This document shows, in pieces, positions 7,452 to 33,224 of a DNA stretch of 64,000 nt. The notes under the pieces are model-generated. The model made no database searches and was not told where the DNA came from. It worked only from the letters and a program-made list of their open reading frames with translations. A program made the position numbers and the translations under genes. The stretch is from Botryllus schlosseri (lineage: Eukaryota), in NCBI GenBank assembly GCA_051294905.1, contig CM119372.1:32302001-32366000 (forward strand). Reading direction: 5' to 3'. Position 1 is the stretch's first letter. Each line of letters opens with the position of its first letter.

Positions 7452-7867
7452 CAGAGATGAGCATGGATTAGGATTAGGTTTTGAAAAAACAGGATTTGTG
7501 AAATTTTGTCGGATTTGGATTGGATTTGGATTAGACATTTTTTTCAGAACGGATTAGGATTTGGATTGGATTTAACTATTCTCTGGGAGATTGAAATGTC
7601 GTGTGGCGAATGGCGACAAACTTTATTCAGATCAGTTATTAATGTACTTATGGTTACGAAGTTACCTTGAATCAAGTGAATCGTTGGCTGTGAAAGAAAA
7701 TTTCATTGCATAAATTAGTATTTTTCCTGAATTTCCAGTTGGAATCGGATTAGAATTGGACATGGACTTGAATATGAAAAAGTTCTGGATTAGGATTAGG
7801 ATTTGGATTTGAAGGTTCGGATTTGGATTGGATTAGGACATAGAAATTTCAAATCCGCTCATCTCTG
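7452..7867. mobile_element. hAT-type MITE
   Basis: TIR cagagatgagc/gctcatctctg; perfect 8-bp TSD ccatccaa; internal ggatt(a/t) repeats. Confidence 0.9.
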
Positions 7868-8068: not shown

Positions 8069-8328
8069 GAAATTTCTACAAGACCAGCTGCCGCGGCTGC
8101 TTAACCCGTTACTTGGCACGATCTCTTCACCGTCGCACTTGCTCGACGCGATTAGGCAGTCATGCAGAGAACGAATTTTAGATAGTTGTCAGCCGATGTT
8201 ATGAAGGAAATGTGTCTAAGTTTCGTTCTCTGCGTGACTGCCTTATCGCGTCGAGCAAGTGCGACGAAGAAGACATCGTGCCATGTAACGGGTTAAGCAG
8301 CCGCGGCAGCTGGTCCTGTAGAAATTTC
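8069..8328. repeat. Long inverted repeat, ~114-bp arms with a 32-nt spacer
   Basis: 8069-8182 is the reverse complement of 8215-8328 with about ten mismatches. Confidence 0.9.
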
Positions 8329-8555
8329 GGATCACATGCACTATACGCCGTCATTTCCCGTACACAGGGAACACGAGTAAAACAATGAATCCCCATGTGC
8401 ATTAATGATTCCCCATGTACATCCTTTTCTCCAAATGCCTTTTTTCTTTTTCATTCTCTCGAATTTCCAATGAAAAAGTGCTGACTCAGCGTATTTCTAG
8501 TTACGAGGTTTGAGTTTTTTCCGTCTGCTCCCATTGTAGAGCATTTCGCACCTCT

Positions 8556-12041: not shown

Positions 12042-12050
12042 GCGTTTTTT
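12007..12050 (-). promoter_or_regulatory. -1 programmed ribosomal frameshift signal (gag-pol)
   Basis: A AAA AAC at 12050-12044 is in gag phase (TCA AAA AAC); pol is in the -1 frame; downstream hairpin GGG-T-GCTGATT...AATCAGC-T-CCC. Confidence 0.85.
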
Positions 12051-14880: not shown

Positions 14881-15228
14881 CTATTGGCTGGAGGAAGTAC
14901 TATTGACAGCTAGTTGTATATCAGAAGAAGATTCGTCAAAAAATGACGTTGATCTGGGTGACGTAGCAGTAGACGTAGAATTGGCGTGAATAAGCGTAAT
15001 TTCACTACTGTTCTCCGTTGGTCCTGGCGACGCGCTGGTAGGTGTAATATTTGTAGTGTTTAGCGTGGATTCACTACTATTTGGCCCAACAATTGCGTTC
15101 AACAGATCAACAAACGCTCCTGGCGACACGTGTAAATAAACTGCTGCCAACGTAATCAGGAGAGATACAAATGATGAAATCAAGGATATGACAAGTACCA
15201 ATTTTGCGATAGTCGTCTTAGAGAGCAT
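14881..15228 (-). CDS. ORF0: small type II membrane glycoprotein, 115 aa from the first ATG
   Basis: MLSKTTIAK, then a hydrophobic helix, then an S/T-rich tail with six N-x-S/T sequons; lies between PBS and gag. Confidence 0.65.
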   Translation of the reverse strand: MLSKTTIAKLVLVISLISSFVSLLITLAAVYLHVSPGAFVDLLNAIVGPNSSESTLNTTNITPTSASPGPTENSSEITLIHANSTSTATSPRSTSFFDESSSDIQLAVNSTSSSQ

Positions 15229-15277: not shown

Positions 15278-16430
15278 TGTGTTTAAAGTGCGGCTCCGAT
15301 AACGATCGTTATTGCGAGTAGTCCACACTTGGTTCGGTATACTTCGTGGTACAAAGTTGACTCTTTCTTTTACTCTTGACGTACTCAGATGTTGATTGAA
15401 GCAATAGTAGTTGTAATGTTGTTTCTTGTCAAGTTGACAATGACCTTGAGGTCCAGAATTCTAAACTAACCTTGATAACTGGTAAGCTTATACCTTAATA
15501 CAACCAAATACTCCAATCGTTATCATGCAGACAGAATGAGGTATCTAAGCAAAACTCGGTTAATATTGGCATATAGAATATCCATCAATTATAACACAAG
15601 ATAAAGCTTAAACCTATTCATATTCATGCACGAATTAATGTATTTTAAATACTCCAAGGTTTGTTTTCGCATATAAACTATGCGACGGCCTTTCCTGCCG
15701 AAGTGGTATCTTTCAGGGTTTGTTAACACATAACTAATGTGACGGCCTTTCCAGCCGAAAAATAGCTCATAGGTTTGTTTACACATATAATGCATGTGAC
15801 GGCCTGTTCTGCCGTAAAGCAGCTCCAAGGTTAGTTTACACACATAATGCATGTGACGGCCTGTCCTGCCGTAAAGTTCATTTATGACATATCGCTACAT
15901 TGTACACCATTCAATCACAATAGTCATGCACGAACTAATGTTTTCTGTTATATCTCTGGGTTCCTTTAGTATCGGTGTGTATAAGCTTTTTATTCATTCG
16001 TATGTACCGTGTCTCACAAACAATAGATTTGATTTACCACGAATCTTTAACTCTACACATGCTCCAATAAGGTAGAGGTTCCTAGCTTAGTCTAAGGGTG
16101 CGTAGCTAGTTATAACGCGTAACTCCGGGAGGTTCCAACATTAAGGACTTCTTATCGTTGACCCGATTAACATGGCCATATGCCAATTAAAGTGCACTTG
16201 TTGATACTACCCTTAACAAGGTGTTGCTTATTCGAACACTGTTAGATACCCAGGGTCCCTTTTACGGGTTTCTGAAGAATACCCTAAACATTTCTAATCC
16301 TAGGCTTCTATCCCGCTAGGGTGAAGGGTCCCGACACTAATATAGGGCGTGGTCGGTGTATAACGCCTAATTAAAGCCTACAGGCGTAGTACTCGCTATA
16401 ATGTTACTGTAGTAACAACCAATTATTCAC
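15278..16430 (-). repeat. LTR-like region; U5 end CA at 15278, far boundary undefined, no second copy in window
   Basis: aaacaCA-AT-TGG junction; candidate AGTAAA poly(A) signal near 15370-15375; enhancer-like tandem repeats. Confidence 0.55.
15652..15876. repeat. Four tandem ~56-bp repeats, U3 enhancer-like
   Basis: Core g(c/t)gacggcct.t.c.gccg.a recurs four times. Confidence 0.85.
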
Positions 16431-16476: not shown

Positions 16477-17150
16477 TTAGCGCCATTTTAAAGCAACCTG
16501 ATGGTATTGATCAAAGATACAGTAAAGGCAGTGCTTGAACAAAATGGCGTCACTATGCAATATTACATCAAAGTAACCCTCACATGAAAATACCAATGTC
16601 CTGTTATGACTCGTGCGTCTCGTCATCATGCCGCAGATTGATTCATGTCGTTGTTCGTCAAACGCATCTTCTCCGATCTCCATCATGGTATGTCCAGGAC
16701 ATATTTGGCAACCGTACATTTGGGTACTTTCGTCTCGTGCATCTATTTCGAACCCGATTTCTTCAACTCCCTTGATAATGAAACGATTCTTCTGCGTATC
16801 TTTCCTTGATTTTGCAGTCGTCTTCGTCGTCTCCTTTCTTCGTTATCTTTAACGTGAGCTTTGGCGGGCATTGTTCGGCACATTTCAACCTCTGGTTCAC
16901 TGGTCCCTGCTGAGCAGTGATTTTTAGCGCCGGATTTCTTCTTATCTCTTCTATTTCACTTCATTAAGCCCTAGATTCTATCGAGGGGAGCAGTCATTCG
17001 GGACTGTCGAATAGAAATTTTAGAGTTGGTACCACCAAGTCGTTTTTTTAATGCCAATAGAATGTCCAGTCCATCTCGATATTCTCATGCCATTTCATCA
17101 CTCCACCCAGTCTTATTATGGTCTTATTGAGAGCAAGTCATTAAGTTCTC
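16477..17150 (-). pseudogene. Decayed orphan ORF
   Basis: Protein-like segments (MKWHENIEMDWTFYWH*, EIEEIRRNPALK..., IKGVEEIGFEIDARDESTQMYGCQICPGH...KWR*) broken by stops and one frameshift. Confidence 0.45.
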
Positions 17151-17589: not shown

Positions 17590-18455
17590 ATGGTAGTGCC
17601 CTAAACGTTTTGTAAAATCTGTCCGTCTTACCCAGGATCTAAAATCAAGGTACGGAGCTGTATCCATTGTGGATATCGTCCTTAACATTTTGGAAAATCT
17701 GTCCGTCTTATCCAAGATCTAACATCAAGGTACGGATCTATATCCATTGTGGATATGGTCCTTAACATTTTGGAAAATCTGTCCGTCTTATCCAAGATCT
17801 AGAATCAAGGTACGGATGTATCAATTTTAGTAAGCCTTAACGTTTTGGAATATTTGACGGTCTTCTCCAGGGTCTAGCACCGAGGTACCGATATATATTA
17901 ATTATAGTGGCCCTAATCGTTTTGGAAAATCTGTCCGTCTTATCCAGGATCTAACATCAAGGTACGGATGACTATTGATTACAATAGTAGCCCTAAACTT
18001 TTGGAATATATTTCGGTCTTCTCCAGGGTCTACCACCGAGGTACCGATATATATTAATTATAGTGGCCCTAATCGTTTTGGAAAATCTGTCCGTCTTATC
18101 CAGGATCTAACATCAAGGTACGGATATATATTAATTATAGTGGCCCTAATCGTTTTGGAAAATCTGTCCGTCTTATCCAGGACCTAACATCAAGGTACGG
18201 ATATATATTAATTATAGTGGCCCTAATCGTTTTGGAAAATCTGTCCGTCTTATCCAGGACCTAACATCAAGGTACGGATATATATTAATTATAGTGGCCC
18301 TAATCGTTTTGGAAAATCTGTCCGTCTTATCCAGGACCTAACATCAAGGTACGGATATATATTAATTATAGTGGCCCTAATCGTTTTGGAAAATCTGTCC
18401 GTCTTATCCAGGACCTAACATCAAGGTACGGATATATATCCATTGCGGATATGGT
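17590..18455. repeat. Tandem array of ~11 units of 77-80 bp
   Basis: Unit cgttttggaaaatctgtccgtcttatccaggacctaacatcaaggtacggatatatattaattatagtggccctaat; exact 77-bp period at 18151, 18228, 18305, 18382. Confidence 0.95.
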
Positions 18456-18489
18456 TCTTTTTGTTGCCATCTTGTTCGACGCAACGCTT

Positions 18490-20100
18490 CTAATATCTTT
18501 TCACCTTTTGGTTTGTCAAGCATTCTCATTAGGGTCCGAGCCCAAGTCCAATCCAACTACTTCCTCATGGTACACACGACACATGACGCGTGTCCATTTA
18601 AACTACTTCCTCGTGTTACATACAACATGAGTTGAGTTTTTGCAGTAGCACTCTGGCTGTCAACCGGCTGCATGTAATATGTGCGGTGACAGTTCTCGGC
18701 AGCTCACATTTGAGCGCAACACCGGCTGAATAAATAAACAGCCACTGATAGCGCCCAAAATGAAGCAACCTAGTAAAAGCCTAGAAACCTATTGCCCCCC
18801 ACAAAGGCATTTTTTTCATTGTTTTATAATATTTTTTTGTGAAAATGATTTTATACTCCGTATAACTTTTATCTTTGATTTTCGCTTTCGTAATTTTTTA
18901 TATATTATGTACATGTTTTAGAATCTATTGATTTTATAATTTTGTTCGCATTGGGTTTTCATTTTTTTGGATTTTTTTCTTAGTGGGTATTATACTATGA
19001 TGCAATGCGCGTATATACACAATTTAATATATCTCTCCACCCCATCCTTCCCCCCTTTTTTGACAGGGATTGTCAACAGTCACATTCCTTTCAGCACACT
19101 TACAACGTGTCAACTGGGAGGCGAGGTCTTCCCATAGTTCACCAAAGTGTTATACTGGATAGGAAGTGCCGAGAGACGTGCTCATCATTTATTTACATTA
19201 CGCCATCACGTGAGCACCTGATAGGCTTAATTTTCCCCATTAATATAAACCGTCAGACACTCAAAAAGAAAACACCTCTTACCATTTGGTAAGTGCCAAG
19301 CGGTGCCATTGGTATCCATCGAGTGAGAGGGGTGCCGAGAGGCAGGGATGGGAGAATGTCTTCTACATAGATTTACATATGCGAGTTAGATATAGTCAAT
19401 AAAAGTAAATTTTATATCCTTATGAAATTCTTGATGTATTGTGCGTCCGTCACGATCGCGAATTCAAAAAATTTATAATATATAAGCAGCAATTTAAAAC
19501 ACTTTGATGTCTCATAGTTATATCACTAATATCTCGCGGAGCCGACTGTAGCGAGGACTAAGAAAAAGGAAAAAATATAAGTAAATTAGAAACTCAAATA
19601 TAATTAGTAGATTAGCAAAAACATTTCATAATGAAAATAGGGTGATTTTTCACGGGGCAGGGGGTCTGGGAATGTTATCCGCTTTTTGTTACTATCTTCT
19701 CCTTCTTATGACGATTATTCGGGTTGACGAGCGATCGCAATTGGACCACACTAGTCTCGTAAATGATTGTGGCGTTAAAACAAATCATTCACTACAATGA
19801 GCGAACCTAATTGCATTTGTACCATCCGAATTAATATAAACATTTTGTGTAACAGACAATAAATGTAAAGCAGACTATCACTGAAGACAAAACATGTTCT
19901 ATACTTATTCGAAAATTCATTTTTGTATATAAGGTGGAAATTGAGCAGCTTGCATTCGAGTAATTGAACTATCCGTAGTCCCCGAGATGTTATTTCAGGG
20001 TCACACTTAGCGATTCAATCACAATACAATGTCCTTTACTTTCTGGAACTTAACATAAATTTTGTGTATCGGTATAATAAATCCGTGTATATAATAAATG
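18490..20100. repeat. Diverged direct repeat module A (module B at ~30865-32140)
   Basis: Collinear blocks cactgatagcgc, cccaca(a)aggcatt, gagtgag..ggtgcc, gattagcaaa..catt and cagact.tca...gacaaa. Confidence 0.75.
18516..18810 (-). pseudogene. Decayed gene, copy A (paralog of 30890-31199)
   Basis: GAISGCLFIQPVLRSNVSCRELSPH and VYHEEVVGLDLGSDPNENA* align with copy B with mostly synonymous changes; stops and frameshifts elsewhere. Confidence 0.7.
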
Positions 20101-20390
20101 AAATACAAGAATACAGCTTCTACTTCAGAGCTATTCTCCAGTTACACTGCATTCTGACTCAAATTCTTTTTCCGTTAAGTTTAGCTAGACAGGGATGCCG
20201 AATTATTACGTTTGTCCTAATTCCCTATCAGCTATAGCCTTATTAATTTAGTTGTCCCGGCTTGTCTGGCAGTCTAAACACTACCAGTCCGTTTCCATAT
20301 TTCAAAAGATGGATAATCAACAGCAATAAAAGGGTGAACAAAAACAACAACAAATTATGACACTACTGTCATAACACATTTTAAAAGTGT

Positions 20391-20843
20391 CTACAGTTGG
20401 TTAGCATATTCTCGTATTAACGGGAATGCAACGTCAAGTAATTCTTCCGTTGAAAGTAATAATGCAATCGGAGATGTTACGTCTAGATGAGGAATACGAG
20501 ACGAAACTACATTCTCATGGATATGATCACTTATTGGATGCAGTCCCACGACGAATGTATACCAACAATATTGAGCACTTTCAAATTGTTCCAACACTAA
20601 CATTCTAGCGACTGCACAATGTTTATCATATATTGCCTTCCATAAACTGTCCGAGGGGGGTTTTCCGAAGCATTTCTTCAAGTATGTAGACATTGTTGCT
20701 TTTATAGTACCCATTGATGAAGCTGCCCATTCATCAAAACTCCTGTTTTGATATTCCGCTTCAAATATATCAAAGTATTCATTGATTTCTTGTTTTGCCT
20801 CTTCTACCTCCCAAGTCTTTACCGTAATAGTTTCATTAGACAT
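20391..20843 (-). CDS. Orphan family A protein, copy 1
   Basis: Shares W..E.AK..I..Y...FE.EY..R.FD.W and A.Y.W.....LHP with 22117-22521 and 22518-22973. Confidence 0.75.
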   Translation of the reverse strand: MSNETITVKTWEVEEAKQEINEYFDIFEAEYQNRSFDEWAASSMGTIKATMSTYLKKCFGKPPSDSLWKAIYDKHCAVARMLVLEQFESAQYCWYTFVVGLHPISDHIHENVVSSRIPHLDVTSPIALLLSTEELLDVAFPLIREYANQL

Positions 20844-21023
20844 ATTCGATATGAGTTTTAGGCACTAAACACAAAAGATCTTATGACTCTATGGCTCTAT
20901 GACTATGACCGATAGGGTTTGCACGAAAGATTATGTGCATCTACAAATGAATCACGCATACTATGTATGTTGATGACGCGTTTTAGCTATTTTGTCTTAC
21001 TTAATGGTACGCCACCCATGGAT

Positions 21024-21479
21024 TCACTTAGCATACATCTCAGTCCAGTCTCGTGCCGTTTTCTGATAACGATCGAAATTATCTCGATACATCCTGGCAC
21101 TTTCTTCATCCATTGGATCATCAGGATTCGGAGAAGCCAGAAGTGAAGAAATCGATATTAATATCATTACCAAAGTCAAAACTGGAGACCACTTATCAGA
21201 GAGGATGTCGATGCAAATTGTACCCTTTCGACTTATATTTGGATGAAAAATCTTCGTATTGAATGTAATTTTAGGTGGTTTGAAGGGATATTCCGTGGGG
21301 AATTCAACTCTCATATGGAATGTCCCTCCATCGTACGGTGTTTCTGGTGGTCCACACAACATCGCATGCCAAACAAAGATATCTGATTCATCGAAGGGCC
21401 CCGCTTGCAAAATTGCGGGATTTGTTTGGATTTCTCGAGCGATTTTTAGTCGTTCGAAATGTAGTCTTTTCTTCGCCAT
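21024..21479 (-). CDS. Ubiquitin-conjugating enzyme E2, UBE2D/E-like, intronless; start MAKKR
   Basis: YPFKPPK, HPN tripeptide, active-site Cys in GTICIDIL, WSP, PNPDDP. Confidence 0.95.
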   Translation of the reverse strand: MAKKRLHFERLKIAREIQTNPAILQAGPFDESDIFVWHAMLCGPPETPYDGGTFHMRVEFPTEYPFKPPKITFNTKIFHPNISRKGTICIDILSDKWSPVLTLVMILISISSLLASPNPDDPMDEESARMYRDNFDRYQKTARDWTEMYAK

Positions 21480-21547
21480 TCGACGTAGTACTATGCTATC
21501 AATTAATCTTATATATGCAAAAAAAACAAAAAATGGGAAGATAGGTA

Positions 21548-22000
21548 TTACCAAAACAATCTTCTGTCTATCGCATACATATCACGTGAAAGACTTGCAA
21601 TAGTTCTACGCGAAATGTGCCAATCCTCGTCAACATTAACCATGGCCAATATATAGAGTAGAAATACATACAGGTAGTATGCAGGACTTTCCCCAAACTT
21701 TTCCTTCACAATACGTTCCAACATTTCGTTAGCACATTTCAGTTGTTCTCTCACCTCCTGGTCCCGGTATAGCCAAACGAGGAAATCCTTCAATACGAAT
21801 TCCATGTCACTAGCTGTCATAGTCGGAAAGTTTTTCACTTTTTCTCTTATCCGTTCATGTACAATCCCAATCCTCAGCCATGCAACTCTGCTGTCAGGAA
21901 TTGTAGGATATGGACATGGTTTAAATTTGTTGCGATCCAATCCCTTTCTTTGGGGATCCTTGAGTACATATGAATAATTCTCACCATATACTTCTAGCAT
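21548..22000 (-). CDS. Orphan protein, 150 aa
   Basis: ATG-initiated ORF tightly packed in the same-strand cluster; no motif recognised. Confidence 0.6.
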   Translation of the reverse strand: MLEVYGENYSYVLKDPQRKGLDRNKFKPCPYPTIPDSRVAWLRIGIVHERIREKVKNFPTMTASDMEFVLKDFLVWLYRDQEVREQLKCANEMLERIVKEKFGESPAYYLYVFLLYILAMVNVDEDWHISRRTIASLSRDMYAIDRRLFW

Positions 22001-22116
22001 TTTACTTTTGTAGTTTCCTTAAATATATAATTCCTGGTTATAAATGACCCACCCTTTTAAATCAAACATAAACAATCAATTTTCATCCAAACGTACGTCT
22101 AGAACTCAAAACATGT

Positions 22117-22521
22117 TTAATTAGGTTCCAAATGTGCTCCTATCCATTGTATTGGGAAATCATCTTTCATGGGATGCATATGGACAATATGTTTGTACCA
22201 AAGAAATTTGGCTTCTTTATAGTTTCCCAGAGTTATGATCGCAATTCGATTATGTTCTTCAATAGCGGCTTGATATCCAAAAGCTTTTCCTTGTAAGGAC
22301 AATGAATTCCTATAAACTTTGTCCACGTACGGCGTCAACATTCTGACAATGTCGTTCGGTCTTGTCATAGCCCATCTTGACCACCTGTCGGATATTTCTA
22401 CGTATTCTTCATAGTATTTACAGAACATACCAAAATAGAATTTAAAATCATTTGCTGCCGATTCATGTTCAATCTGTATCCATTCCCTTTTACTTATAGA
22501 TTTTCGAGGCATACCTCTCAA
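22117..22521 (-). CDS. Orphan family A protein, copy 2 (diverged)
   Basis: W...E...A...F..YF, RW, EH..IA...L.N...A...W...IV..HP pattern. Confidence 0.7.
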   Translation of the reverse strand: MRGMPRKSISKREWIQIEHESAANDFKFYFGMFCKYYEEYVEISDRWSRWAMTRPNDIVRMLTPYVDKVYRNSLSLQGKAFGYQAAIEEHNRIAIITLGNYKEAKFLWYKHIVHMHPMKDDFPIQWIGAHLEPN

Positions 22522-22973
22522 TCGTGTAAAACAACAATTTTTGCAAAAGCGACTTCTAAAATCGGAATAGCAACAGTTTTAAATTCTCGTTTAGTTAATA
22601 GTAACGCCGTAGGGGTTCGCAAATTCATTTGCGGTAAGCGTTCATCCACAAACTCTTTGGGTAAATATTCGTGAGCTGGATGCAGCTTGAAGATGAGTCC
22701 GAACCATGTGTATTGGGCCTGATCAAAATTTTTCATAACAAAAACACGAGCAATTTCACCGTGAGCGTTATAAAGCCTATCAAGTAGTTCGGGGTTTACA
22801 TCCGCAAAACATAGGTGTAGATATTTAGCCAATAATTGTTCAAATTTTTCTTTCGGAGTAGCTTTCCATTTATCAAAATTTCGATGATGATATTCTTGCT
22901 CGAATGCATCTTAGTATTTGCTGATTTGTTGTTTAGCTAGCGTAATTTCCCAATTTTCTAACACACTAGTCAT
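22518..22973 (-). pseudogene. Orphan family A, copy 3, with one premature TAA at 22913-22911
   Basis: MTSVLENWEITLAKQQISKY*DAFEQEYHHRNFDKW continues in frame into ORF 22518-22832 and aligns with copy 1. Confidence 0.8.
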
Positions 22974-22988
22974 CTTAATACAACAAAA

Positions 22989-23849
22989 TCACATTGAAAT
23001 CATATACTCAATATCACAAGTAAATGATTCGTAAGAACAAGGATGAATAGTATAATTCTGCACTGTACATGTTCTGGTCGTAAAGTTTCTTATTGTGCCT
23101 CTAAGTCCCAAATCATCTTGACAATGCCAAAATTCAGATTTATTTATCATTATATCATCAACATTTCCAAGAACATCGTAGTAAGATGTTTTTGGAATTA
23201 TGGTATCCGTTGCCTTGGATATTGCCCCCCTCAGTAATTCATATATCATTAATCTTCTCCCGAAATCTTCCTGCAGATCACGAGTTGAAAGTATGACATT
23301 TATCATATTATTAATGCTTTCCAGATCTTGCGGTGATACATGAGGGTATAAACCTTCCGTCACGAACAATTTGTTCTTGCTCAAATATGGTATCTCTTCA
23401 TCATTCATTCCAGGTCCATCCGAATCCAAAATTTCTTCCAATGTCTGTTTGAAATAAGTATGATCTCCTTCATATTTGTCATCAGAATCACTCTCCCGCC
23501 CATCCATATCCGGCCAATACTGTTGTACAGGGGAATGTATCATCCAATCCTCTCGTTCCACGATCAATTCCCAAACCTTATTGAGAAAGTCTTGTTGTTG
23601 GTTTTGATCCTTTCCCGTAAGTTTACGAATATCAATGGCTTTCAATGATTCATAAATTCTGCGTATGTTACGGCAGTTTTGTTCGACAGCATCCTCGACT
23701 TTCAAAGTGTGACCATACCTGTCACGTACATTTTGAAATTCTATCATACTAGTACCCATTTCTCCAAAACTTAATAACAAAAATTTTAGAATTGAAACAG
23801 CCATCCCAGTACACCATACGCACTCAAAACTGCAGTATTCACTAATCAC
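22989..23849 (-). CDS. Orphan family B protein, copy 1; true start probably downstream of the GTG
   Basis: C-terminal IYELLRGAISKATDTII...WHCQDDLGLRG motif shared with two other ORFs. Confidence 0.75.
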   Translation of the reverse strand: MISEYCSFECVWCTGMAVSILKFLLLSFGEMGTSMIEFQNVRDRYGHTLKVEDAVEQNCRNIRRIYESLKAIDIRKLTGKDQNQQQDFLNKVWELIVEREDWMIHSPVQQYWPDMDGRESDSDDKYEGDHTYFKQTLEEILDSDGPGMNDEEIPYLSKNKLFVTEGLYPHVSPQDLESINNMINVILSTRDLQEDFGRRLMIYELLRGAISKATDTIIPKTSYYDVLGNVDDIMINKSEFWHCQDDLGLRGTIRNFTTRTCTVQNYTIHPCSYESFTCDIEYMISM

Positions 23850-23950
23850 CTCTTCAAAATATGAGCACTAACATATTAAAATGTTATTTTTGCTAGGTAA
23901 ACTAGCAATATACCAGCCTAGCAACAAGATTAATAGTCCTGCCTGTCCCG

Positions 23951-25639
23951 TCAAGCTCTATACACTTTGATTTTCTCGCATATCTTTACATCACAGATGA
24001 GGCATCGTTCTACATTGGTCGCGCACCTTTCACAAGAACATAGGTGTCCGCAGGGTATGAAAGTTACTTCACTCCTGTTTTTCCTGCATTGTTGACAAAA
24101 CACAGTCTCTTGTACTTCTTTTATACTTTTGGCGAGATCCTCTGTAGAAATAGATTCCGATATAGCTTCATTCTTCATTCCTTCTCTGGCACTTATGTCA
24201 CTATTTTTTTCAAGGATATTAGTTACTCGATGGTTTGTCGTTTGTGGATTAACCGATGTAATACTTGGTGTCGTAAGTAAGTCTTGAATAATGTCCCTTA
24301 ATTCACCACGGAAACCATTGTCTCGTCTGTTGATAGCTCTTTCTATTTGTCCTCTCGTAAATCCCATATTTTCCAATTGCATCCTTTTTCCGTATTCTTC
24401 AAGCGAGCTTGTCATGTTTCGACGTCCCTCGTCCTGTAGCTCGTCCAGACATATCCCATTCCTTATCGAAGGTCGATTAAGATTGGGGTGTTCATTCTTC
24501 AGGCGCAATACGAAATCAACGCCTTTCATTTGAAAAACGTACTCGCAACCTGGGAACCACTTAGCATGTTCTGTCCATGGTTCGTCGTTGTAATCCCAAT
24601 TTTGCAAACCTCCGTTACAATAGAAACACTTTGTCTTATCTGCATTTCCAAGGAAAAACAGACCAGCTCTCGCCAACTGTTCAACTGGCGCAAGAATTCT
24701 TTGTCTTGGCCATTTATCGTTAAAGGAATCTATTCTTTGTTGCAACGTCATCATATGTGAATTTATCGGATATAGGCAAGGAAATCGTTCAATCAACCTA
24801 AGCTGTTCTTCCGGTGAAGGTTCCGGCGGTTCTCCAGTATTAGTCGTTAACCTCTCAATTTTTTTTCGAATATTGTCATCCGCTTGATTCCTTTCAGATT
24901 CCGTCATTGGTACATTTCCCGTATAGTCGTCGTTTACAATCCTGCACTTGGCAAAATGTATTTGATGTTGTTCGATTATATTATCAGTAGGTGCCCAGTT
25001 TCGAAGTACTCCCGAACACGAAAAACATTGTGTTCTATCTAGGTTTCCAAGATAGAAAAATCCTTGTTTGGCTAATTCCCCCACCAAATATGGAGCAGGG
25101 TAGGATGGCCATTTGTCAAAGGTTTTCCTCCTCTCGAACTCACTTCTCAAATTCATGGTTCGCAGTAATATCTCATGTTCTCGGTCACAAATATTAGCGA
25201 ATATGGTTTGTGGTAATTGATGCTCCAGCTCTCTGGTAGTTGTTCTTCTTGTATCCCGATCAGACCGAGTTCTTGTGAAGTTAAAGTTACCCCTTATGTG
25301 TCCAAAAAAAATCCTCGTAGAACAGTTCGAAATAGTCACGTTGTAGCCCTCTCGTCCCGACACCATACTGCAAGTAGCTTCATGCCAACGATTGTCCAAG
25401 ACATCGTCTTCAATGTCCCAGTTTTCCACGCAAATGCCGCAGCCAAAGCACTTTACTATATCTTTATATCCCGTCCAATAAAAACCCGCAGCTGCCAGAT
25501 AAATCGGCATTACAGGAATTTCCTTAGGATAATGTTTGAACGTTGCAAGTCTATAATTTTCCACCCAATGATTCCCAGGTGGTATATAGGTACAGTTCTG
25601 ACCAGGAAGATCGCGATCTCTGTTTGTACGGACCCCCAT
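23951..25639 (-). CDS. Inhibitor of apoptosis protein: 3 BIR + UBA-like + RING, intronless
   Basis: BIR2 and BIR3 have canonical CX2CX16HX6C; BIR1 is degenerate; MGF UBA motif; C-terminal RING CQQC...PCGH..CERC...CLIC. Confidence 0.95.
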   Translation of the reverse strand: MGVRTNRDRDLPGQNCTYIPPGNHWVENYRLATFKHYPKEIPVMPIYLAAAGFYWTGYKDIVKCFGCGICVENWDIEDDVLDNRWHEATCSMVSGREGYNVTISNCSTRIFFGHIRGNFNFTRTRSDRDTRRTTTRELEHQLPQTIFANICDREHEILLRTMNLRSEFERRKTFDKWPSYPAPYLVGELAKQGFFYLGNLDRTQCFSCSGVLRNWAPTDNIIEQHQIHFAKCRIVNDDYTGNVPMTESERNQADDNIRKKIERLTTNTGEPPEPSPEEQLRLIERFPCLYPINSHMMTLQQRIDSFNDKWPRQRILAPVEQLARAGLFFLGNADKTKCFYCNGGLQNWDYNDEPWTEHAKWFPGCEYVFQMKGVDFVLRLKNEHPNLNRPSIRNGICLDELQDEGRRNMTSSLEEYGKRMQLENMGFTRGQIERAINRRDNGFRGELRDIIQDLLTTPSITSVNPQTTNHRVTNILEKNSDISAREGMKNEAISESISTEDLAKSIKEVQETVFCQQCRKNRSEVTFIPCGHLCSCERCATNVERCLICDVKICEKIKVYRA

Positions 25640-26089
25640 ATTTATTTTTTTTCCTTAAATTCTATTTTTCGGTGTAGTAGTACATGGCAGAACAGGCATT
25701 CATCTATACTAGGTCGAGGTGATGGTCTCTCAGGTGAATATACCTTATTTACTCAATTCCATCATAATCATACAATTGTTCTGTACACAACACGGAGACA
25801 AGATAAATAAAAACATTGCACAATAAAATATCTCAAACTTGTAACAAGAGACTCTCTAACAAAACTTCAACAACATTTCACATTCAACATCTCATACCAT
25901 TCTCCTTGTCTCACCAGGTGGTTCTAATCAACATTATTTTTCATTTGATATTTCAATCTAATGGAAGAACGATAATAATATACAATTTTTTCATAGTTCA
26001 CGATTGATATGGCCCGCATTCCAAGTGATTTAGCAATCTCCATGGGTTAGAGGTTAGGCCGTCGTTTAATCATTTTGACAAATGAACAC

Positions 26090-26908
26090 TTAATAACGAG
26101 AATTTCGGTAAACAATGTTGGAATTTTCCAAAAATAGGTTCATTGACTGAGCGTTGCTATTAACTCTTTTCGAATATATGTATATATATCCATCCATTGC
26201 AACAGTTTTCGAGTCCAGTATCAAATACCCTTTCACTCCAAAATTCGTTTGACTATGCCAAGTCCACGCGGAGCTAGCACTTCTTATATGACTAAGATCG
26301 TTTGTGCGTATCAAAATATTCGTATATTTCATCACTACTCCACGTATCACTTCATATATTACTTGCCTTATTCCTGAGGGAGGTATCCTTCTGATTACCC
26401 CTAGCAGAGTTTCCGTAATTATAGCCCACGAAATTTCATCCGGCTGTATAGTTTGTTCCTTCCATACTTTTATGCTTTGTCGCTGTGATGAATTCTTTAC
26501 GATGGCAGAATCTTGGGAGTCGTCGGAGTCCGTATCATCGAACGTATCTGAGTCCAAATCGTTCTCTGTTTCGTCCTTAATCGTCCAATCTTGGGTTTTA
26601 CAGATAGAGCATGAATGATGCCTTTTATACCAATTGTTTTCCTTTCCGAAGAAGGTTTTTAGCGCATCGGTTATTGATACAAGACACCGTGGATTTTTTG
26701 TTACCTCAATTTCATCAAGTTGTGTTATCAGATTGCGAAAAATGGCAGCGTTATGATTCCGTATATCGTCTAAATACATTATGTCACTATGAACACAAAA
26801 CGAAAACGTAACAGCAATAAAGGATTCAGTGTTATGTACGTGCACACTAACACTCCCATAGTACTTATGATACCAAGACTGTACTTGTGCTAGATTGCGT
26901 TGCAACAA
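26090..26908 (-). CDS. Orphan family B protein, copy 2; likely ATG at 26779
   Basis: IYEVIRGVVMKYTNILI...WHSQTNFGVKG motif; acidic D/S stretch. Confidence 0.7.
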   Translation of the reverse strand: MLQRNLAQVQSWYHKYYGSVSVHVHNTESFIAVTFSFCVHSDIMYLDDIRNHNAAIFRNLITQLDEIEVTKNPRCLVSITDALKTFFGKENNWYKRHHSCSICKTQDWTIKDETENDLDSDTFDDTDSDDSQDSAIVKNSSQRQSIKVWKEQTIQPDEISWAIITETLLGVIRRIPPSGIRQVIYEVIRGVVMKYTNILIRTNDLSHIRSASSAWTWHSQTNFGVKGYLILDSKTVAMDGYIYIYSKRVNSNAQSMNLFLENSNIVYRNSRY

Positions 26909-27150
26909 TTATTTTCAAACAAGCCGCATCCGTACCAATATCAACCGCTTTTTTATTTTTTATTTTTTTTTATTTTTATTTTTTTTAGTTAAGGAAAACA
27001 AAGGGCATATGAAATAGGATACTTGACTCCGGTACTCAAAACCGGCTGCTAACTCTTTAATATATACAATTTCCATCTTTAGTCAATTTCCAAGATAGAG
27101 GCATTCATGTTAAACAAATTTGATACTTTCAACAAATGCTATATCCAATA

Positions 27151-28098
27151 TTACAATGGTCTGTAATGAGGTTCACTCGCAATTATTTCCAAAAATCTTG
27201 GAAATCTTTCTTCTAGTGCCACTCGTCTTTTCCAGAGCCACTCATGCAAGTATTGGGGAATAAGTGATCGAGGTACACCGCACAATCGTCTGATAGCAGA
27301 CTTAAAAAAATTCCAAGAAGCCTCAATCAGCTGCGTATGCACACCGTCTTCACTAACATAGGTCTTATGGTGGTTCACTACCGAGTGTTTATAATTCATA
27401 CCCAAACTTTCTAATTTGCGATAGCTGGCAAAAGAATCGGTCCATATTGTAGATCCCTCTTTTACATGCTTCATAATTATCTCTGACAATACCGAAGCTT
27501 TTCTTCCTTCTTCAGGTACCAATTCTGCAAACATTTCACGAGTTTCCACATCTATTCCGGCCAAAACCCATCGCTGTCGTATCGGTCTTCCGCGGGGATT
27601 TCCCGGTTTTCGCTTAGCCACAAAGGTCTCATCGATCTGGCATACGTGGGATTTCCCGTGAGATTCACCGCCTATTCTGGTACCTCTTCTCTTCATTTCA
27701 CTTGAGCATACTTTTCGAAGTTTTCTGGACCAATTTACCAAAGTTCTTTTGCTGACATTCGCTTCGAACGCAATCTGTCGCTGTGATACATCTATTGTCC
27801 AAAGATAAACAATTATCACAAGGTTAGCGAGCTCTATTCTACTTCCCTCAAACAACGATCGTTTCCTTATAGACACTGTAGTATTGCACCTGGAAGTAGA
27901 ACACCTCCATCTATATCCATCCCTCAACCATCTACATTTTTCTTCGATCATTGGTTGTTTGCATTTGGAACATGTAGCTTCACGAGCAAGTAAATGGCGT
28001 GAACGCAGAAATTCTATACATTTTCGGCCACTTGAGATGATACCCAACCGAACAAGATGAAGCAGATTGTCCCTTCTCCGGATTTTCTTACATTTCAT
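27151..28098 (-). CDS. IS1595/ISXO2-like (Merlin-type) DDE transposase
   Basis: N-terminal CxxC...C...C Zn ribbon; QIDET, RGR...WV, IWTDS..SY..L, VNH, HTQLIEASW, YLHEWLW; all three acidic residues intact. Confidence 0.9.
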   Translation of the reverse strand: MKCKKIRRRDNLLHLVRLGIISSGRKCIEFLRSRHLLAREATCSKCKQPMIEEKCRWLRDGYRWRCSTSRCNTTVSIRKRSLFEGSRIELANLVIIVYLWTIDVSQRQIAFEANVSKRTLVNWSRKLRKVCSSEMKRRGTRIGGESHGKSHVCQIDETFVAKRKPGNPRGRPIRQRWVLAGIDVETREMFAELVPEEGRKASVLSEIIMKHVKEGSTIWTDSFASYRKLESLGMNYKHSVVNHHKTYVSEDGVHTQLIEASWNFFKSAIRRLCGVPRSLIPQYLHEWLWKRRVALEERFPRFLEIIASEPHYRPL

Positions 28099-28172
28099 TT
28101 TCAATTTATAAAGTATACACTCCAGTATAACGTAGATTCTGTATATACAAAAAAATGAAACAATGAGCGTTT

Positions 28173-28679
28173 TTAGGCAGGCACTTTCAAAGCCATAAAT
28201 CGGCAATCGGCTTCTTTTAACGATATTGCACGTGTTTGTGCATACGCGTAAATCTGAACTTCCGGAAAGATCACCCATACTATGAGATCCCGTTCAGTTT
28301 CCTCATTTCTAAGAAAATCCTTCCAGTCTGGGTTTACCCTTTTCAAGTCTGTAACCCATTGTATCCCGATATCTGCGAACGCCATTTGAATAGGTCTTTC
28401 AGGATAGAGGCTTCCTGCGTAAATCTCCTCCCACTCGTTTTCATCAAGATGTTTCCCAGTCCAATAGTTGTCGCATGTTGGAATACCATACTTCTGTTTC
28501 CAAAATCGTAGTCGCAGATTGGATTCATCCTTCATTACATTATACAAATGATTTGTCAAGGTGTATGTTGTCATGAGGAATTTCAGCGATTGTAGCCCAT
28601 AATCGATAAGTGCTTCCTTTTGGGGTATCCAAATTGGATGTTCTGTCTCCGGATCTTCACAACGCAAACCCAAACACAT
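28173..28679 (-). CDS. Orphan protein, 168 aa; weak similarity to 32255-33079
   Basis: ATG-initiated, packed in the cluster; LKFLMTTYTLTNHLYNV...RLRFW resembles LVMETIKTTPVRDHLMNL...RIQYW. Confidence 0.6.
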   Translation of the reverse strand: MCLGLRCEDPETEHPIWIPQKEALIDYGLQSLKFLMTTYTLTNHLYNVMKDESNLRLRFWKQKYGIPTCDNYWTGKHLDENEWEEIYAGSLYPERPIQMAFADIGIQWVTDLKRVNPDWKDFLRNEETERDLIVWVIFPEVQIYAYAQTRAISLKEADCRFMALKVPA

Positions 28680-28795
28680 ATTAATGGTCCCAGCTATGTT
28701 ATTACTATGGGTTCCTTATACAAACACACACCATATAAGTTGGATAGAACAAATCACACCCAATAAATCAAAACCCTATCATCGTTACTCAAACT

Positions 28796-29827
28796 TTACA
28801 GTAATCGAAATGTGACCAGACACCCAATAATGGTAACTGTTTGTTTCGAATGTATAGTCATAGCGAGGGATGGACTATCCGTCACTTCATAAGGCGAGTA
28901 TGATTGTTTCCGCCAAAGAAAACTTTCATATGACGTTCCGTTAACATATTTTTTAAATTTTAAAACCTCTAATTTTGGTAATTTTAAAAGTAAGGAATCG
29001 TTAAGAGACTGAATATAATTACAACTGAGATCAAGCGTGTGTAGACCTTGGAACGATGTATTGGAGAAAAGAGAGAAAAATTGTACGTTGTTATATGACA
29101 ATGTTAGTCTCTCCAGGTTAAACGAATATTGTAACACTGTCATTTCGAACTCAACCAATTTGTTTCCATCCAGGTGTAACGTTTCCAGTTCTCCCAATCC
29201 TCGAAAAACCCCTCGTTTTATAACCTTTATTGCATTTCTTGATAAGTCCAGTATTTTTAGACGATACAGGTGATTGAAGGCTCCGTCTTTTAACTCCTTT
29301 ATCACATTATTATCCAAATATAATTTTTTTAAATTTCCCAACATTGCAAATGTCGATTCGTTAATTTGTTCCAACAAATTGCTGCTGAGATACAGACACT
29401 CCAGTCGTAGCAGCCCAAAAAAATTTTCCTTCCGAATTTGTTTGATGTAATTTCGCATCAAGTTTATTTCCCTAAGCTTTGCATTATTACGGAAAGCAGC
29501 TCCTTGAAGTATCTGGATTTTATTCCAACCACAGTGCAATACTTCTATGTTCTCATATTTTTCCAGTTGATCTCCAGTTAATTTCCGTAGACAGCTGTCG
29601 TTAATGAATAGTTGTGATGTATCTCTACAAGACTTTGCCAGATATATCTGGTCAGGGTCTGGGATTCTTGTATAAATCGAATGGTCGCACCACAGGATCA
29701 AATTGCTTCCCTGCATGCATTCAGGATACAGTGAAGTTCGTCTATCATACGGCGTACACTTTGATCTTTCCATTATCCCTGAATCGATTGCGATACAGAC
29801 GCCAAACCAACATATTATTACTCTCAT
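28796..29827 (-). CDS. Secreted or surface leucine-rich repeat protein, intronless
   Basis: Signal-peptide-like N-terminus; eight 24-aa LxxLxLxxNxI repeats; Cys-containing N-cap; hydrophobic C-terminus. Confidence 0.9.
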   Translation of the reverse strand: MRVIICWFGVCIAIDSGIMERSKCTPYDRRTSLYPECMQGSNLILWCDHSIYTRIPDPDQIYLAKSCRDTSQLFINDSCLRKLTGDQLEKYENIEVLHCGWNKIQILQGAAFRNNAKLREINLMRNYIKQIRKENFFGLLRLECLYLSSNLLEQINESTFAMLGNLKKLYLDNNVIKELKDGAFNHLYRLKILDLSRNAIKVIKRGVFRGLGELETLHLDGNKLVEFEMTVLQYSFNLERLTLSYNNVQFFSLFSNTSFQGLHTLDLSCNYIQSLNDSLLLKLPKLEVLKFKKYVNGTSYESFLWRKQSYSPYEVTDSPSLAMTIHSKQTVTIIGCLVTFRLL

Positions 29828-30012
29828 ATTGTTTGTTTCGTTAGTAACTTATATAATCAAACATAAGACCATTAATACCCGTTCAAAATTTGCACCAATG
29901 AATCAGTAAACCCATATTTTCATGCTGCATGGAGCAATATAAACATCAACTTTTCAACCCAATATCTTCATATATACACCTTCTTTAATGTCGATCCTTA
30001 CTCTGATATCAA

Positions 30013-30561
30013 CTAATCAATATCAACACTACTTCCCTCATATGGAAAAGGATGTATTTCTATGCGTCTTATCCTTTCTGTTTGCCAATGAATTGAATTC
30101 GAATATCCTTTTAGTCCCAAATCGTTTTGACAAGACCATACTTCAACATGTGGTGGATCTTTACAACTATCTCTTTCATCATACACATTTTTGGAAATTC
30201 TAGTATTCGTAGTTTTTATCACGAGTCCCCTAATTAATTCATACAACATGACTCTTCTTCCAAAAGAGATGCGTTCATTCATTCTGATTGCAAATATGTC
30301 ATTAATCACATGACAGAAAGCATTTAATGTTTCTTGCGCTATTTCGTCATCTAGGGATACATCCACCGGTCCAAAGTTCGTCTGCTTAACCCATTCGATC
30401 TGGTCTGTAAGTAATTCCCATACCTTTTCTTTTACCATCAATATTCTAGATTCGTCATTGTAGTATTTTAGATCCCATTTATCCAATTCCTCATATACGC
30501 CATCCAAAAGGTACCAGTTTGGTAGATTATTATCAACCTCAATATAATCGAACTCTAACAT
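30013..30561 (-). CDS. Orphan family B protein, copy 3
   Basis: VKEKVWELL and LYELIRGLVIKTTNTRISK...WSCQNDLGLKG match copy 1. Confidence 0.75.
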   Translation of the reverse strand: MLEFDYIEVDNNLPNWYLLDGVYEELDKWDLKYYNDESRILMVKEKVWELLTDQIEWVKQTNFGPVDVSLDDEIAQETLNAFCHVINDIFAIRMNERISFGRRVMLYELIRGLVIKTTNTRISKNVYDERDSCKDPPHVEVWSCQNDLGLKGYSNSIHWQTERIRRIEIHPFPYEGSSVDID

Positions 30562-30733
30562 TCTATTTCCACTAAAACATCTTAAATTTTAAGATAATTT
30601 AATTCGATATATACAGTTCATAGTATTATAGAATCTATCCACAAGCACTTCACAACATATTCCGTATACATTTAACTTTGTCAAATATTCATATTCATTT
30701 GAACAATAAATCAACAAGAATAATCAGAACCCC

Positions 30734-30805
30734 GGCGCCGTGGCACAAGGTTTCAGCTCCTGATTCCCGACCAAGGGGTCCTCGGTTCAAACCCGGGAGT
30801 GAGCG
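30734..30805 (+). pseudogene. tRNA-like sequence with degenerate acceptor and anticodon stems
   Basis: A box TGGCACAAGG, T arm CTCGG-TTCAAAC-CCGGG, nominal anticodon CCC; acceptor stem does not pair. Confidence 0.55.
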
Positions 30806-30864
30806 TAGGGCAATACGTACTTGCTCCCGATGTTAAATGATACAACAAGCCTTTAGACCCAATT

Positions 30865-32140
30865 TGGAATTCTTCACTTATAATTTTTGTCAAGCGTTTT
30901 CATACCAGCTCAAACCCAATTCCAATCCGACCACGTCTTCATGGTACACTTCATATTTCGCGTTTTTCAATCTACTACTTTAACACTTCACATCCATAGC
31001 GAGTTAAGTTGTCGCTTTGTGCAACTCATCAAATAGTACTGTTGCGGTCAATCTGCTATTAGTAGCGTGCGCGGGGACAATTCCAGACAGCGTACAGTCG
31101 AGCGTAACACTGGCTGAATGAAGCCACAGTCACTGATAGCGCTCAGCCCAGGCGCTATCGAGTAAATGCACCAGAAGCGTATCACCTCCCACAAGGCATT
31201 TTTACCATTTTATTTTATTTATATTTTTTATTAAACGATATGTACATACTACTTTTTTTTTTATTTTTTGAGGATTTTTTTGGTGGGTATATAGAAATGC
31301 TATCACCATCCTTGTCTTCCTCCCCTGTCTACGGAAAATGCTGGCGCACATTTTCGCTTAGACGTGTTCATCCATGTCACAACTAGGAGCTTAGTTTTCC
31401 CACAAGTCAAGCACAAGGTACTTTACTTTATATGAATGTCTTCTTACTTTGAGAAATATCAAGTTTGGGACCCAGAGTGAGGAGAGGTGCCAAGAGACAA
31501 GGATGGAAGTATGGACAACTTAAATAAAGATTGGAATAGTACTAATATAAAATTTTCGAATCAAAAACTATCGAGAATAAGCTCAAGGCACAACACATCT
31601 ACATGTAGCGTATGTCTCAATGACAGCTCCATAAAACTACATAATAATCGCAGCATTAAAGAAAGATCTAGTGATAACAAGAAACTGTCTCGGGTTTATA
31701 TCTAGCAGAGCGTAAAACGTGGAAAAAACTTGAAAAATAATAAATAAAATTAATCATACGTGATCAAATGATTAGCAAAGCATTCCACCATGAACACGAG
31801 GTGATTTAAATGGCAGATGGTCCGGGGCTGTTACACGTTAATATTCGCCGTTCTAGTCCTACAGACGACACAATTCAACACCACATTTCACATCACCAAT
31901 GACCGACACCGCACAGACTTTCATCAATGACAAACTCATGGTCTTTTCTGAAGCGAAAAATCATTAATATACATATAGTGGAAATAGCTCATTGCTACAT
32001 TCAAGTATATAGGCATTTTAGTAGTCCTAGAGATTCTATTCAAGAGGCAGTGGTAGCGAGTCAATTCACAATGATAATTCGATGTATCGGAATATTGCTA
32101 TAAATCGGACCAATATATAATAACTCCGTTTATTTTACCG
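30865..32140. repeat. Diverged direct repeat module B
   Basis: Collinear with 18490-20100. Confidence 0.75.
30890..31199 (-). pseudogene. Decayed gene, copy B (paralog of 18516-18810)
   Basis: SAISDCGFIQPVLRSTVRCLELSPR, RLTATVLFDEL and VYHEDVVGLELGLSWYENA*; same terminal TGA as copy A. Confidence 0.7.
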
Positions 32141-32254
32141 ACCAGAGTACCAAGTGCGAATGACCCCATGTAGTTCTACACAATTGTCCACACATTATGC
32201 TCATCAGAAACCGTACTTCGTTAGACATTCTGAATCGTGATATGCCTCTAACCG

Positions 32255-33079
32255 TTACAAGTTTGAACCTTCACACATTTTCATTTTTTTTGGCTTGGGC
32301 AAAGTTTGGCTCCCATGTCCTCTACCCGGGGAGAGCCCAACGTATTGTATATTTTCAATCGACGAGGTGCACTCGTCACCTCTTTGTTGGGTACCTTCGT
32401 CTTTCTCTTTTCGAGGTTGGTGAGTTCGCTCTGACAACTGTTCAATAGGAAGAATGAAAGCACCTCCCACGAAGCCATAAATTGTCGTAGTTCCATATGT
32501 AAAGCTCCACCCTTCAGGGTTTCCGCCGTATAGTAGTTCAAATTCTGCCTGTTGTCGCAACATTAAAACATCCCAAAGGGGCAACTCTTTATCATTTCGA
32601 TAATATTGAAGCAATATGGCAATGGCGGTTACTAGCGCTTCTGCGTATAACACGTATAGAACTAAAAGTCCCTTTTCTTCCTCAGTATTTTGATTCAATG
32701 CCTTATTAATTTTACACGCGTCTTGTACGCAAGTGTGACACAGTTTTACAAGTTCCATTACATCCCAAGTGTTTTGAAAGTATGCACGAACGTTCCTCAT
32801 AACCCAACACTGTCTGCATTGATCAATTGTGGCCGGGCGGAATGGCACTTCCAATCTTGTCCAGTCCCCTTTTGTAAGTACGCACTTTTGCCAATATTGG
32901 ATTCTCGGGTTAGCATTTCCATGAGCTCCCATCAATAAGTTCATCAAATGATCTCTAACCGGAGTAGTCTTGATAGTTTCCATTACTAGGCGTTGTCTAT
33001 GCGTTAGCGGAATACTCGATGCCCACTTGAGTGCAAAACTATGATCAACTTCAGGCTGGCACAGAAGTCCGTGACACAT
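32255..33079 (-). CDS. Orphan protein, 274 aa
   Basis: Long ATG-initiated intronless ORF with a CxxC pair and a hydrophobic segment; last ORF of the island. Confidence 0.65.
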   Translation of the reverse strand: MCHGLLCQPEVDHSFALKWASSIPLTHRQRLVMETIKTTPVRDHLMNLLMGAHGNANPRIQYWQKCVLTKGDWTRLEVPFRPATIDQCRQCWVMRNVRAYFQNTWDVMELVKLCHTCVQDACKINKALNQNTEEEKGLLVLYVLYAEALVTAIAILLQYYRNDKELPLWDVLMLRQQAEFELLYGGNPEGWSFTYGTTTIYGFVGGAFILPIEQLSERTHQPRKEKDEGTQQRGDECTSSIENIQYVGLSPGRGHGSQTLPKPKKMKMCEGSNL

Positions 33080-33224
33080 GTTGTCTAAACTAACTCTTCA
33101 CCTATATCCCTTTTTTTGAAGAAAAATAGAATTACTGGGCGTTGTCTATGCGTTAGCGGAAAGCTTGATGCCCACTTGAGTGTAAAACTATGATCAATTT
33201 CGGGCTGGCACAGAAATCCGTGAC
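32982..33224. repeat. 94-bp duplication of the 5' coding end of ORF 32255-33079
   Basis: 32982-33075 is repeated at 33131-33224; the copy lacks the ATG. Confidence 0.9.

Follow-up and report, generated by a model that had tools for sequence, protein, structure and literature searches.

Candidate accessory cargo of a giant retrovirus-like element: neighbouring intronless genes for a ubiquitin-conjugating E2 and an inhibitor of apoptosis in Botryllus schlosseri

Burro elements, which are giant Ty3/gypsy-like long terminal repeat (LTR) retrotransposons of planarians, carry BIR and ubiquitin-pathway domains (PMC6431247). Adintoviruses and Polintons (Mavericks) carry homologues of inhibitor-of-apoptosis proteins (IAPs) and of Bcl2, and the adintovirus supplementary data may also hold genes for ubiquitin-conjugating enzymes (E2s) (PMC8502044). 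African swine fever virus (ASFV) encodes an E2, pI215L, and an IAP, pA224L, in a single genome, and its IAP binds caspase (PMC12172490). In Teratorn, a piggyBac transposase is fused with an alloherpesvirus (PMC6431247). Here we analyse 64,000 nucleotides of the Botryllus schlosseri genome (GenBank assembly GCA_051294905.1, contig CM119372.1, positions 32,302,001 to 32,366,000 of the forward strand; hereafter the window), in which an E2 gene and an IAP gene lie in a packed block of ORFs (open reading frames) beside retrovirus-like gag and pol genes. The two genes are as follows (aa, amino acids).

21024–21479, minus strand: UBE2D-like E2, 151 aa, intronless, one uninterrupted ORF
23951–25639, minus strand: IAP, 562 aa, intronless, one uninterrupted ORF
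IAP domains, in residues: BIR1 64–90, BIR2 205–232, BIR3 338–365, a weak UBA-like segment, RING 515–549 and a tail aromatic residue, Y560

On balance, these intact genes are likely carried as accessory cargo by a giant mobile element of retrovirus-like type, and they were probably acquired separately and not as a matched pair. This reading rests on the packed intronless block in which both genes lie, on the transposase embedded in that block and on the homology of a flanking repeat to the leader that precedes a gag-pol unit without an integrase. It rests further on two three-member paralogue families that have no Pfam match and on the orientation of the block ORFs, all of which lie on the gag-pol strand. 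A first-pass annotation had described the E2 and the IAP as a self-contained module, captured as the cDNA of a cognate enzyme pair by a retroid element to block host cell death. The retroid setting and the mobile-element cargo found support, and the IAP proved intronless and of ascidian host ancestry; the self-contained module and the one-step capture of a pair found none.

The E2 is UBE2D-like, with an active-site cysteine and no introns, as the first-pass annotation had it. The protein matches Pfam UQ_con (E = 7e-48), has no extensions beyond the UBC fold and finds its closest solved structures among UBE2D/Ubc4-type enzymes (E = 8e-50, about 1e-49). All of the catalytic residues are kept (H79-P80-N81, forming the HPN motif, C89, D91 and D121), as are R5, F66 and P99 at the positions that face a RING. 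Departures from UBE2D2 are Q25 (S22, on the backside), K96 (Q92) and V100 (A96), with the UBE2D2 numbering for S22, F62, C85, Q92 and P95 taken from PMC6349121. Judged by these residues, the enzyme looks catalytically competent and would depend on the host E1, a reliance by which the module is not self-contained in the strict sense.

Its ancestry lies apart from canonical UBE2D. Identity to four canonical UBE2D rows is 51%, where 'canonical UBE2D' is our own label, assigned from the match to solved UBE2D sequences. In a tree of 54 rows (40 hits of one search, 13 of the 150 of another, and the query), the E2 pairs with the database protein P0251 (77%) inside a nine-row clade of unnamed sequences with support of 97/84. 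It falls outside the six rows labelled canonical UBE2D and does not nest among them as an orthologue. This separate, supported placement points to an old, distinct E2 lineage instead of a fresh copy of the host UBE2D.

For the IAP, the predicted single ORF, three BIRs and RING were all recovered (Pfam E = 4e-54 for the BIR stretches and 3e-8 for the RING), but the UBA domain that had also been named appears only weakly. That segment contains an MGF motif and lines up with the UBA region in IAPs of ascidians, and it reaches 14 bits (E = 0.046) against the Pfam UBA cut-off of 22.4. The zinc-ligand pattern C-x2-C...H...C is present in all three BIRs, with an ascidian-type spacing in BIR1. BIR2 and BIR3 align to peptide-binding BIRs of XIAP, cIAP and NAIP and have the expected residues of the groove for the IAP-binding motif (IBM). 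Given the kept zinc ligands and the good alignment with peptide-binding BIRs, binding of IBM-bearing caspases or antagonists would be the likeliest activity of the protein, and from intact BIR2 and BIR3 we infer an anti-apoptotic function.

The RING retains all eight zinc ligands and the tail aromatic Y560, which corresponds to F616 of cIAP1. At the linchpin, the position of Arg606 in cIAP1 (PMC6349121), it has D550 instead of a cationic residue. Among 26 compared IAPs (two of an initial 28 did not fit the pattern), 16 carry Arg at this position and six carry Lys; Asn occurs in two, and His and Asp in one each. Two further residues are unusual: Q517 stands where canonical ascidian IAPs have Ile or Val, and L547 where they have Pro. 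In RNF38, an Asp at the linchpin weakens binding of the ubiquitin-charged E2 28-fold (PMC12326332, Table 1), a precedent from which the IAP RING would be read as a weak ligase with ordinary E2s. XIAP is active with a Tyr at this position (PMC12326332). The aspartate therefore lowers the expectation of ligase activity, while the XIAP case indicates that activity is compatible with a linchpin that is not cationic.

The best matches of the IAP are proteins of Styela clava. In a tree built by a quick method from 29 rows, for which 28 of 75 database hits were used, it falls in a seven-row clade with four Styela clava paralogues and two unnamed sequences (Shimodaira–Hasegawa-like approximate likelihood ratio test, SH-aLRT, 100). 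In chordate XIAP-like genes, BIR3 is split over three exons (PMC13159474); here it lies in one ORF, which suggests an RNA step at some time in the history of the IAP. Both genes lack introns, as processed retrocopies do, but no run of at least eight A residues, the poly(A) feature of such copies, lies downstream of either. Old retrocopies lose their poly(A) remnants. By sequence comparison, the IAP is of ascidian host ancestry and the ancestry of the E2 is separate; with the E2 outside canonical UBE2D and the IAP among Styela-type proteins, there is no support for a matched pair having been taken directly from the host. Two database proteins, P0053 and P0077, are ascidian-type IAPs with three BIRs and a RING but are annotated in Endozoicomonas bacteria, possibly through host-to-symbiont transfer or contamination.

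The two genes lie within 2.5 kb of each other, as first noticed (the gap is 2,471 bp), but the gap holds four ORFs and both genes belong to a larger block on one strand, 20391–30561. The block is 83% coding, with every ORF on the minus strand, which is also the strand of gag-pol. Its other features, together with an ORF just beyond it, are listed here.

20391–20843, minus strand: family A copy 1, 150 aa, helical throughout in the predicted model (confidence by predicted local distance difference test, pLDDT, 66)
21548–22000, minus strand: ORF between E2 and IAP, 150 aa, no Pfam or PHROG match
22117–22512, minus strand: family A copy 2, 131 aa, assigned by paralogy
22518–22970, minus strand: family A copy 3, interrupted by an early stop roughly 20 codons from its start
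22989–23804, minus strand: family B copy 1, 271 aa, assigned by paralogy
26090–26779, minus strand: family B copy 2, 229 aa, assigned by paralogy
27151–28278, minus strand: IS1595/Merlin-type DDE transposase ORF with N-terminal Cys pairs
28173–28679, minus strand: ORF, 168 aa
28796–29827, minus strand: leucine-rich-repeat protein, 343 aa, intronless (Pfam LRR_8, E = 8e-36)
30013–30561, minus strand: family B copy 3, 182 aa (model unusable, pLDDT 39)
32255–33079, minus strand: ORF to the right of repeat R2, 274 aa; its start is partly duplicated at 33131–33224

The transposase ORF matches Pfam DDE_Tnp_IS1595 (PF12762; E = 1e-16), and its translation contains what we take to be the D, D, E motif. 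Scans of the window found no terminal inverted repeat (TIR) with a target duplication belonging to this ORF. About 160 bases past its stop lies an A-rich tract, 26947–26990, that resembles a poly(A) remnant; it has no convincing target duplication, and the best 8-mer match is of low complexity. Families A and B, with three members each, are unrelated to each other and have neither a Pfam match nor a usable Atlas match. In family A, a tblastn alignment of copy 1 crosses the stop of copy 3 (35% over 139 aa, E = 5e-31), and copy 1 gives one weak PHROG match (E = 0.008). A Bcl-2-like fold considered for family A is unsupported, with no Foldseek match at E = 0.001 and a best Z of 6.1 (model pLDDT 66). 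Scans of viral contigs returned no relatives for any of five queries (pol, family B, the E2, the transposase and the IAP). No tRNA or Rfam match was found anywhere in the window. The packed, intronless block, its embedded transposase and the position of the E2 outside canonical UBE2D agree with the view, already taken in the first-pass annotation, that these are not the ordinary host copies.

The block is bracketed by two repeats and followed, on the same strand, by the gag-pol unit.

30853–32297: R2, direct repeat upstream of the block
18475–20264: R1, direct repeat between the downstream end of the block and the gag-pol unit that follows
17594–18439: tandem array of about 11 copies of a 77-bp unit
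16477–16842, minus strand: short ORF with a BIR-like Cys/His pattern, doubtful
14881–15228, minus strand: small ORF immediately ahead of gag, with a hydrophobic stretch at its N terminus
12029–14872, minus strand: gag-like ORF, 947 aa, with a zinc knuckle
8556–12041, minus strand: pol, with a protease-like motif, reverse transcriptase (RT), RNase H and a Tpt1/KptA-like end

R1 and R2 are diverged direct repeats of 1.5–1.8 kb. Their alignment has 970 identical columns out of 1,370 and scores 598, against at most 263 in ten shuffles, and its BLASTN cores are 66% identical over 349 nt and 69% over 160 nt. The pol lacks the integrase that a Ty3/gypsy element would have, with no rve or other integrase match in Pfam; in the usual place of the integrase, its C terminus (8556–9070, minus strand) resembles the Tpt1/KptA family of RNA 2'-phosphotransferases (E = 1e-7). 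Relatives of this pol comprise three database proteins (P0001–P0003, 36–47% identical) and two metagenome loci, and by alignment the three proteins and one of the loci (L002) share the Tpt1/KptA-like ending. The next matches are at most 27% identical, many of them with integrase Pfam domains. The gag zinc knuckle is below cut-off (zf-CCHC, E = 0.002), and gag has relatives in both loci at 39–42%. These metagenome contigs, L001 (1–4703) and L002 (1–4776), encode gag and an integrase-less pol of 47–50% identity and are too short to reveal any cargo.

Several smaller features lie around gag-pol. The doubtful ORF at 16477–16842 shares 30% identity with BIR1 of the window IAP along 54 aa; it has no Pfam BIR match and no match from seven other IAPs. 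A 57-bp tandem repeat in four copies (15652–15877) is upstream of the small ORF that precedes gag. About 100 bases past the pol stop is a purine-rich stretch (8395–8455, minus strand) that looks like a polypurine tract; a short duplicated 20-mer comes after it, and no matching LTR was found. Just past pol is a 260-bp foldback (8069–8328) with 114-nt arms that are 92% complementary; its first and last eight bases are the same palindromic 8-mer, and it may be a miniature inverted-repeat transposable element (MITE) with an 8-bp target duplication.

Copy number was gauged by mapping reads to 18460–38400 from 4 of 24 listed runs, two of DNA from different samples (X1 and X5) and two of RNA (X13 and X17); summed contig depth serves as a rough guide and is not a copy number. 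R1 reaches 1,472–2,251 in X1 (single contigs, 64–90) and 415–1,000 in X5 (single contigs, about 50). In X1, the E2 bins are at 78 and 118, the IAP bins at 101–216 and R2 at 98–115. R1 is about 20–30 times deeper than the E2 and IAP in the DNA runs, and depth drops sharply between R1 and the block near 20.4 kb. Smaller rises, to 220–380, occur over family A, the transposase and family B copy 3. From this contrast, the gag-pol leader appears to be repeated many times and the E2 and IAP to have few close copies. The block copy itself is likely a passive, drifting insertion, low in number: one family A copy is broken, and the listed allele differences are not enriched for silent changes. Immediately to the right are host repeats of very high depth (33755–36414 and 37745–38400, summed depth to about 96,000 in X1), which give this flank the look of ordinary host DNA rich in repeats.

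Several observations weigh against assigning the two genes to a retrovirus-like element as cargo with a weak RING. No TIR with a target duplication encloses the block and gag-pol within the window: scans for an exact 8–9-bp duplication with an inverted repeat, followed by relaxed scans, gave only small host MITEs and chance-level pairs. Nor does self-BLASTN detect paired LTRs around gag-pol within the window, R1 and R2 bracketing the cargo block instead. With no enclosing ends found, it is from R1/R2 homology that we infer that block and gag-pol form one element. The E2, the IAP and R2 are near single-contig depth, so that, at 90% identity or above, the block was not multiplied along with the R1 unit. 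The allele count comes from a small sample, the 40 best-supported of 630 rows. The RNA runs X13 and X17 (6% and 13% of the respective run) give no real cover of either gene. Finally, the zinc ligands and Y560 are kept and XIAP works with Tyr at the linchpin, so the IAP RING may be functional.

Alternatively, and in line with the sharp fall in depth near 20.4 kb, the block could be another kind of mobile unit, either derived from a Polinton/Maverick or a cargo-bearing Merlin DNA transposon, that adjoins or has recombined with a multi-copy gag-pol element. Its genes would act as described below, without owing anything to reverse transcription by that element. IAP homologues are carried by adintoviruses and Polintons (PMC8502044), as this would lead one to expect. 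Set against it, R2 is homologous to the gag-pol leader R1, and among the 16 long ORFs scanned, a scan that did not extend to decayed remnants, there is no Pfam match to PolB, capsid, packaging ATPase or rve integrase. We consider this explanation not probable, although it is the one that survives the evidence best among the alternatives.

A different account would give the block to the host, as a cluster, particular to this lineage, of retrogenes or of genes domesticated from elements, now fixed and in use, with gag-pol merely inserted beside it. Low depth fits this, as do alleles only 1–2% apart in X1 and the partial presence of the block in the second sample, X5, where four bins between 20455 and 33089 are empty, gaps that are not proof of absence. 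Long frames have stayed open although R1 and R2 are only about 66–71% alike, four close IAP paralogues are annotated in Styela clava, and intronless IAP duplicates occur in many animals (PMC13159474). Virus-like gene density, the embedded transposase and the one broken paralogue speak against host ownership, as do the lack of RNA cover in the two runs and the nature of the allele differences. Among the best-supported 40 of 630 rows, 19 differences in X1 fall in block ORFs, 6 silent and 13 residue-changing, with no silent excess; eight are in the E2 (three silent, five changing), and the residue-changing ones include conserved positions. We regard this explanation as unlikely. The RNA reads that were placed (1,058 in X13 and 188 in X17) are nearly all partial alignments piled on T-rich tracts, and the piles at 25639–25657 and 31252–31270 and a 72-read joint were rejected as artefacts with adapter-like or poly-C loose ends.

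The idea closest to the first-pass annotation is that of a dedicated, co-evolved E2–E3 pair, in which the surface of the IAP RING would match the window E2 and not host UBE2D, for private ubiquitylation of caspases or IAP antagonists. In favour of this, the two open genes are 2.5 kb from each other; F66, P99, R5 and all catalytic residues of the E2 are retained; and neighbouring interface positions are non-canonical on both sides (D550 in the RING, and K96 in the E2 at the position of UBE2D2 Q92). However, K96 is Glu in the nearest relative, P0251, and Lys occurs at the same position in unrelated E2s, while the linchpin also varies among RINGs of the Styela clade, for which no partner E2 is known. 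The two genes also have different ancestries and are separated by four unrelated ORFs. We hold such a pair to be rather improbable. Capture of a cognate pair in one cDNA step is unsupported: the E2 belongs to a separate clade, the RING surface is non-canonical, the A-run is missing and the pair is not amplified with the multi-copy part. Most doubtful is the boldest version, a giant integrase-less retrovirus-like element integrating by its Merlin-type transposase and carrying an orthogonal pair, a divergent E2 and a host-derived IAP with its RING re-tuned to that E2, to silence host cell death insulated from host UBE2D.

If the two genes are instead separately acquired cargo of a retrovirus-like element, as we favour, then in an active element BIR2 and BIR3 of the IAP would bind the IBM peptides at the N termini of processed caspases or IAP antagonists, and this binding would delay host cell death. 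The RING would act as a weak ligase or as a dimerisation scaffold. The E2, charged by the host E1, would serve host or element ligases in general.

Elsewhere in the window, an intronless ORF of 1,103 aa (60573–63884, minus strand) is envelope-like in its features: a signal-peptide-like start, a Cys-rich N-terminal half, a Thr-rich stretch and a C-terminal hydrophobic segment. It has no significant Pfam or PHROG match. Three small non-coding segments (2037–3395, 7452–7867 and 43962–45129) have inverted ends and exact 8-bp target duplications and resemble hAT-like MITEs. A candidate third repeat, suggested by a DNA-contig joint between 19912 and 36684, was rejected (alignment score 143, against up to 154 in shuffles).

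Transposons with full host-manipulation genes act like viruses and can reshape host gene families. IAPs of mobile elements are already known from Burro and adintoviruses; an E2 with a full IAP as cargo would extend a known type, and the carrier may be the more unusual part. If the cargo reading is true, an E2 beside a full-length IAP would take that precedent beyond single anti-death domains, to enzymes of the ubiquitin pathway, and element-borne IAPs would be one possible route to the IAP expansion of ascidians. Caspase-9 and Apaf-1 are reported to be missing from tunicates (PMC13159474), which bears on the target that an intact BIR3 would have. We found no published retroelement with both an E2 and a full IAP, and no published Merlin-linked integrase-less retroelement, in a search that covered mostly listings and the beginnings of abstracts, with the subscription literature largely outside it.

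Compared with known systems, the proteins themselves resemble the RINGs of cIAP1 and XIAP and their partner UBE2D (UbcH5) in domain order, zinc ligands, tail aromatic, E2 catalytic residues and the equivalents of F62 and P95 (PMC6349121, PMC12326332). They differ in the linchpin Asp, in the Gln and Leu at two RING positions that are usually hydrophobic or Pro, and in the E2, which has just 51% identity to canonical UBE2D and carries Gln in place of the backside Ser22. Like Teratorn, the locus joins a DNA-transposon DDE enzyme to a set of virus-like genes that includes genes captured from a host; unlike that piggyBac-based DNA virus, it has reverse-transcriptase genes and an IS1595/Merlin-type enzyme, and its ends are not seen in the window. 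With adintoviruses it shares dense intronless accessory genes and an IAP as the likely cargo of an integrated animal element, but the window has no PolB, capsid or rve integrase matches and the neighbouring replication genes are gag and RT. Like Burro, it would be a giant retroelement with BIR and ubiquitin-pathway domains and a proposed hand in host apoptosis. Burro, however, has an integrase and LTRs and holds these domains inside its polyprotein, whereas the window has an integrase-less pol, separate cargo ORFs, a full-length IAP with a RING, an E2 and a Merlin-type transposase. ASFV, in turn, is a large DNA virus whose E2 acts on interferon and NF-kB, in a pathway separate from that of the IAP and not as its partner. 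In encoding an E2 together with an IAP, one that in ASFV binds caspase, each with its own role, it would be the closest precedent for the reading that we prefer.

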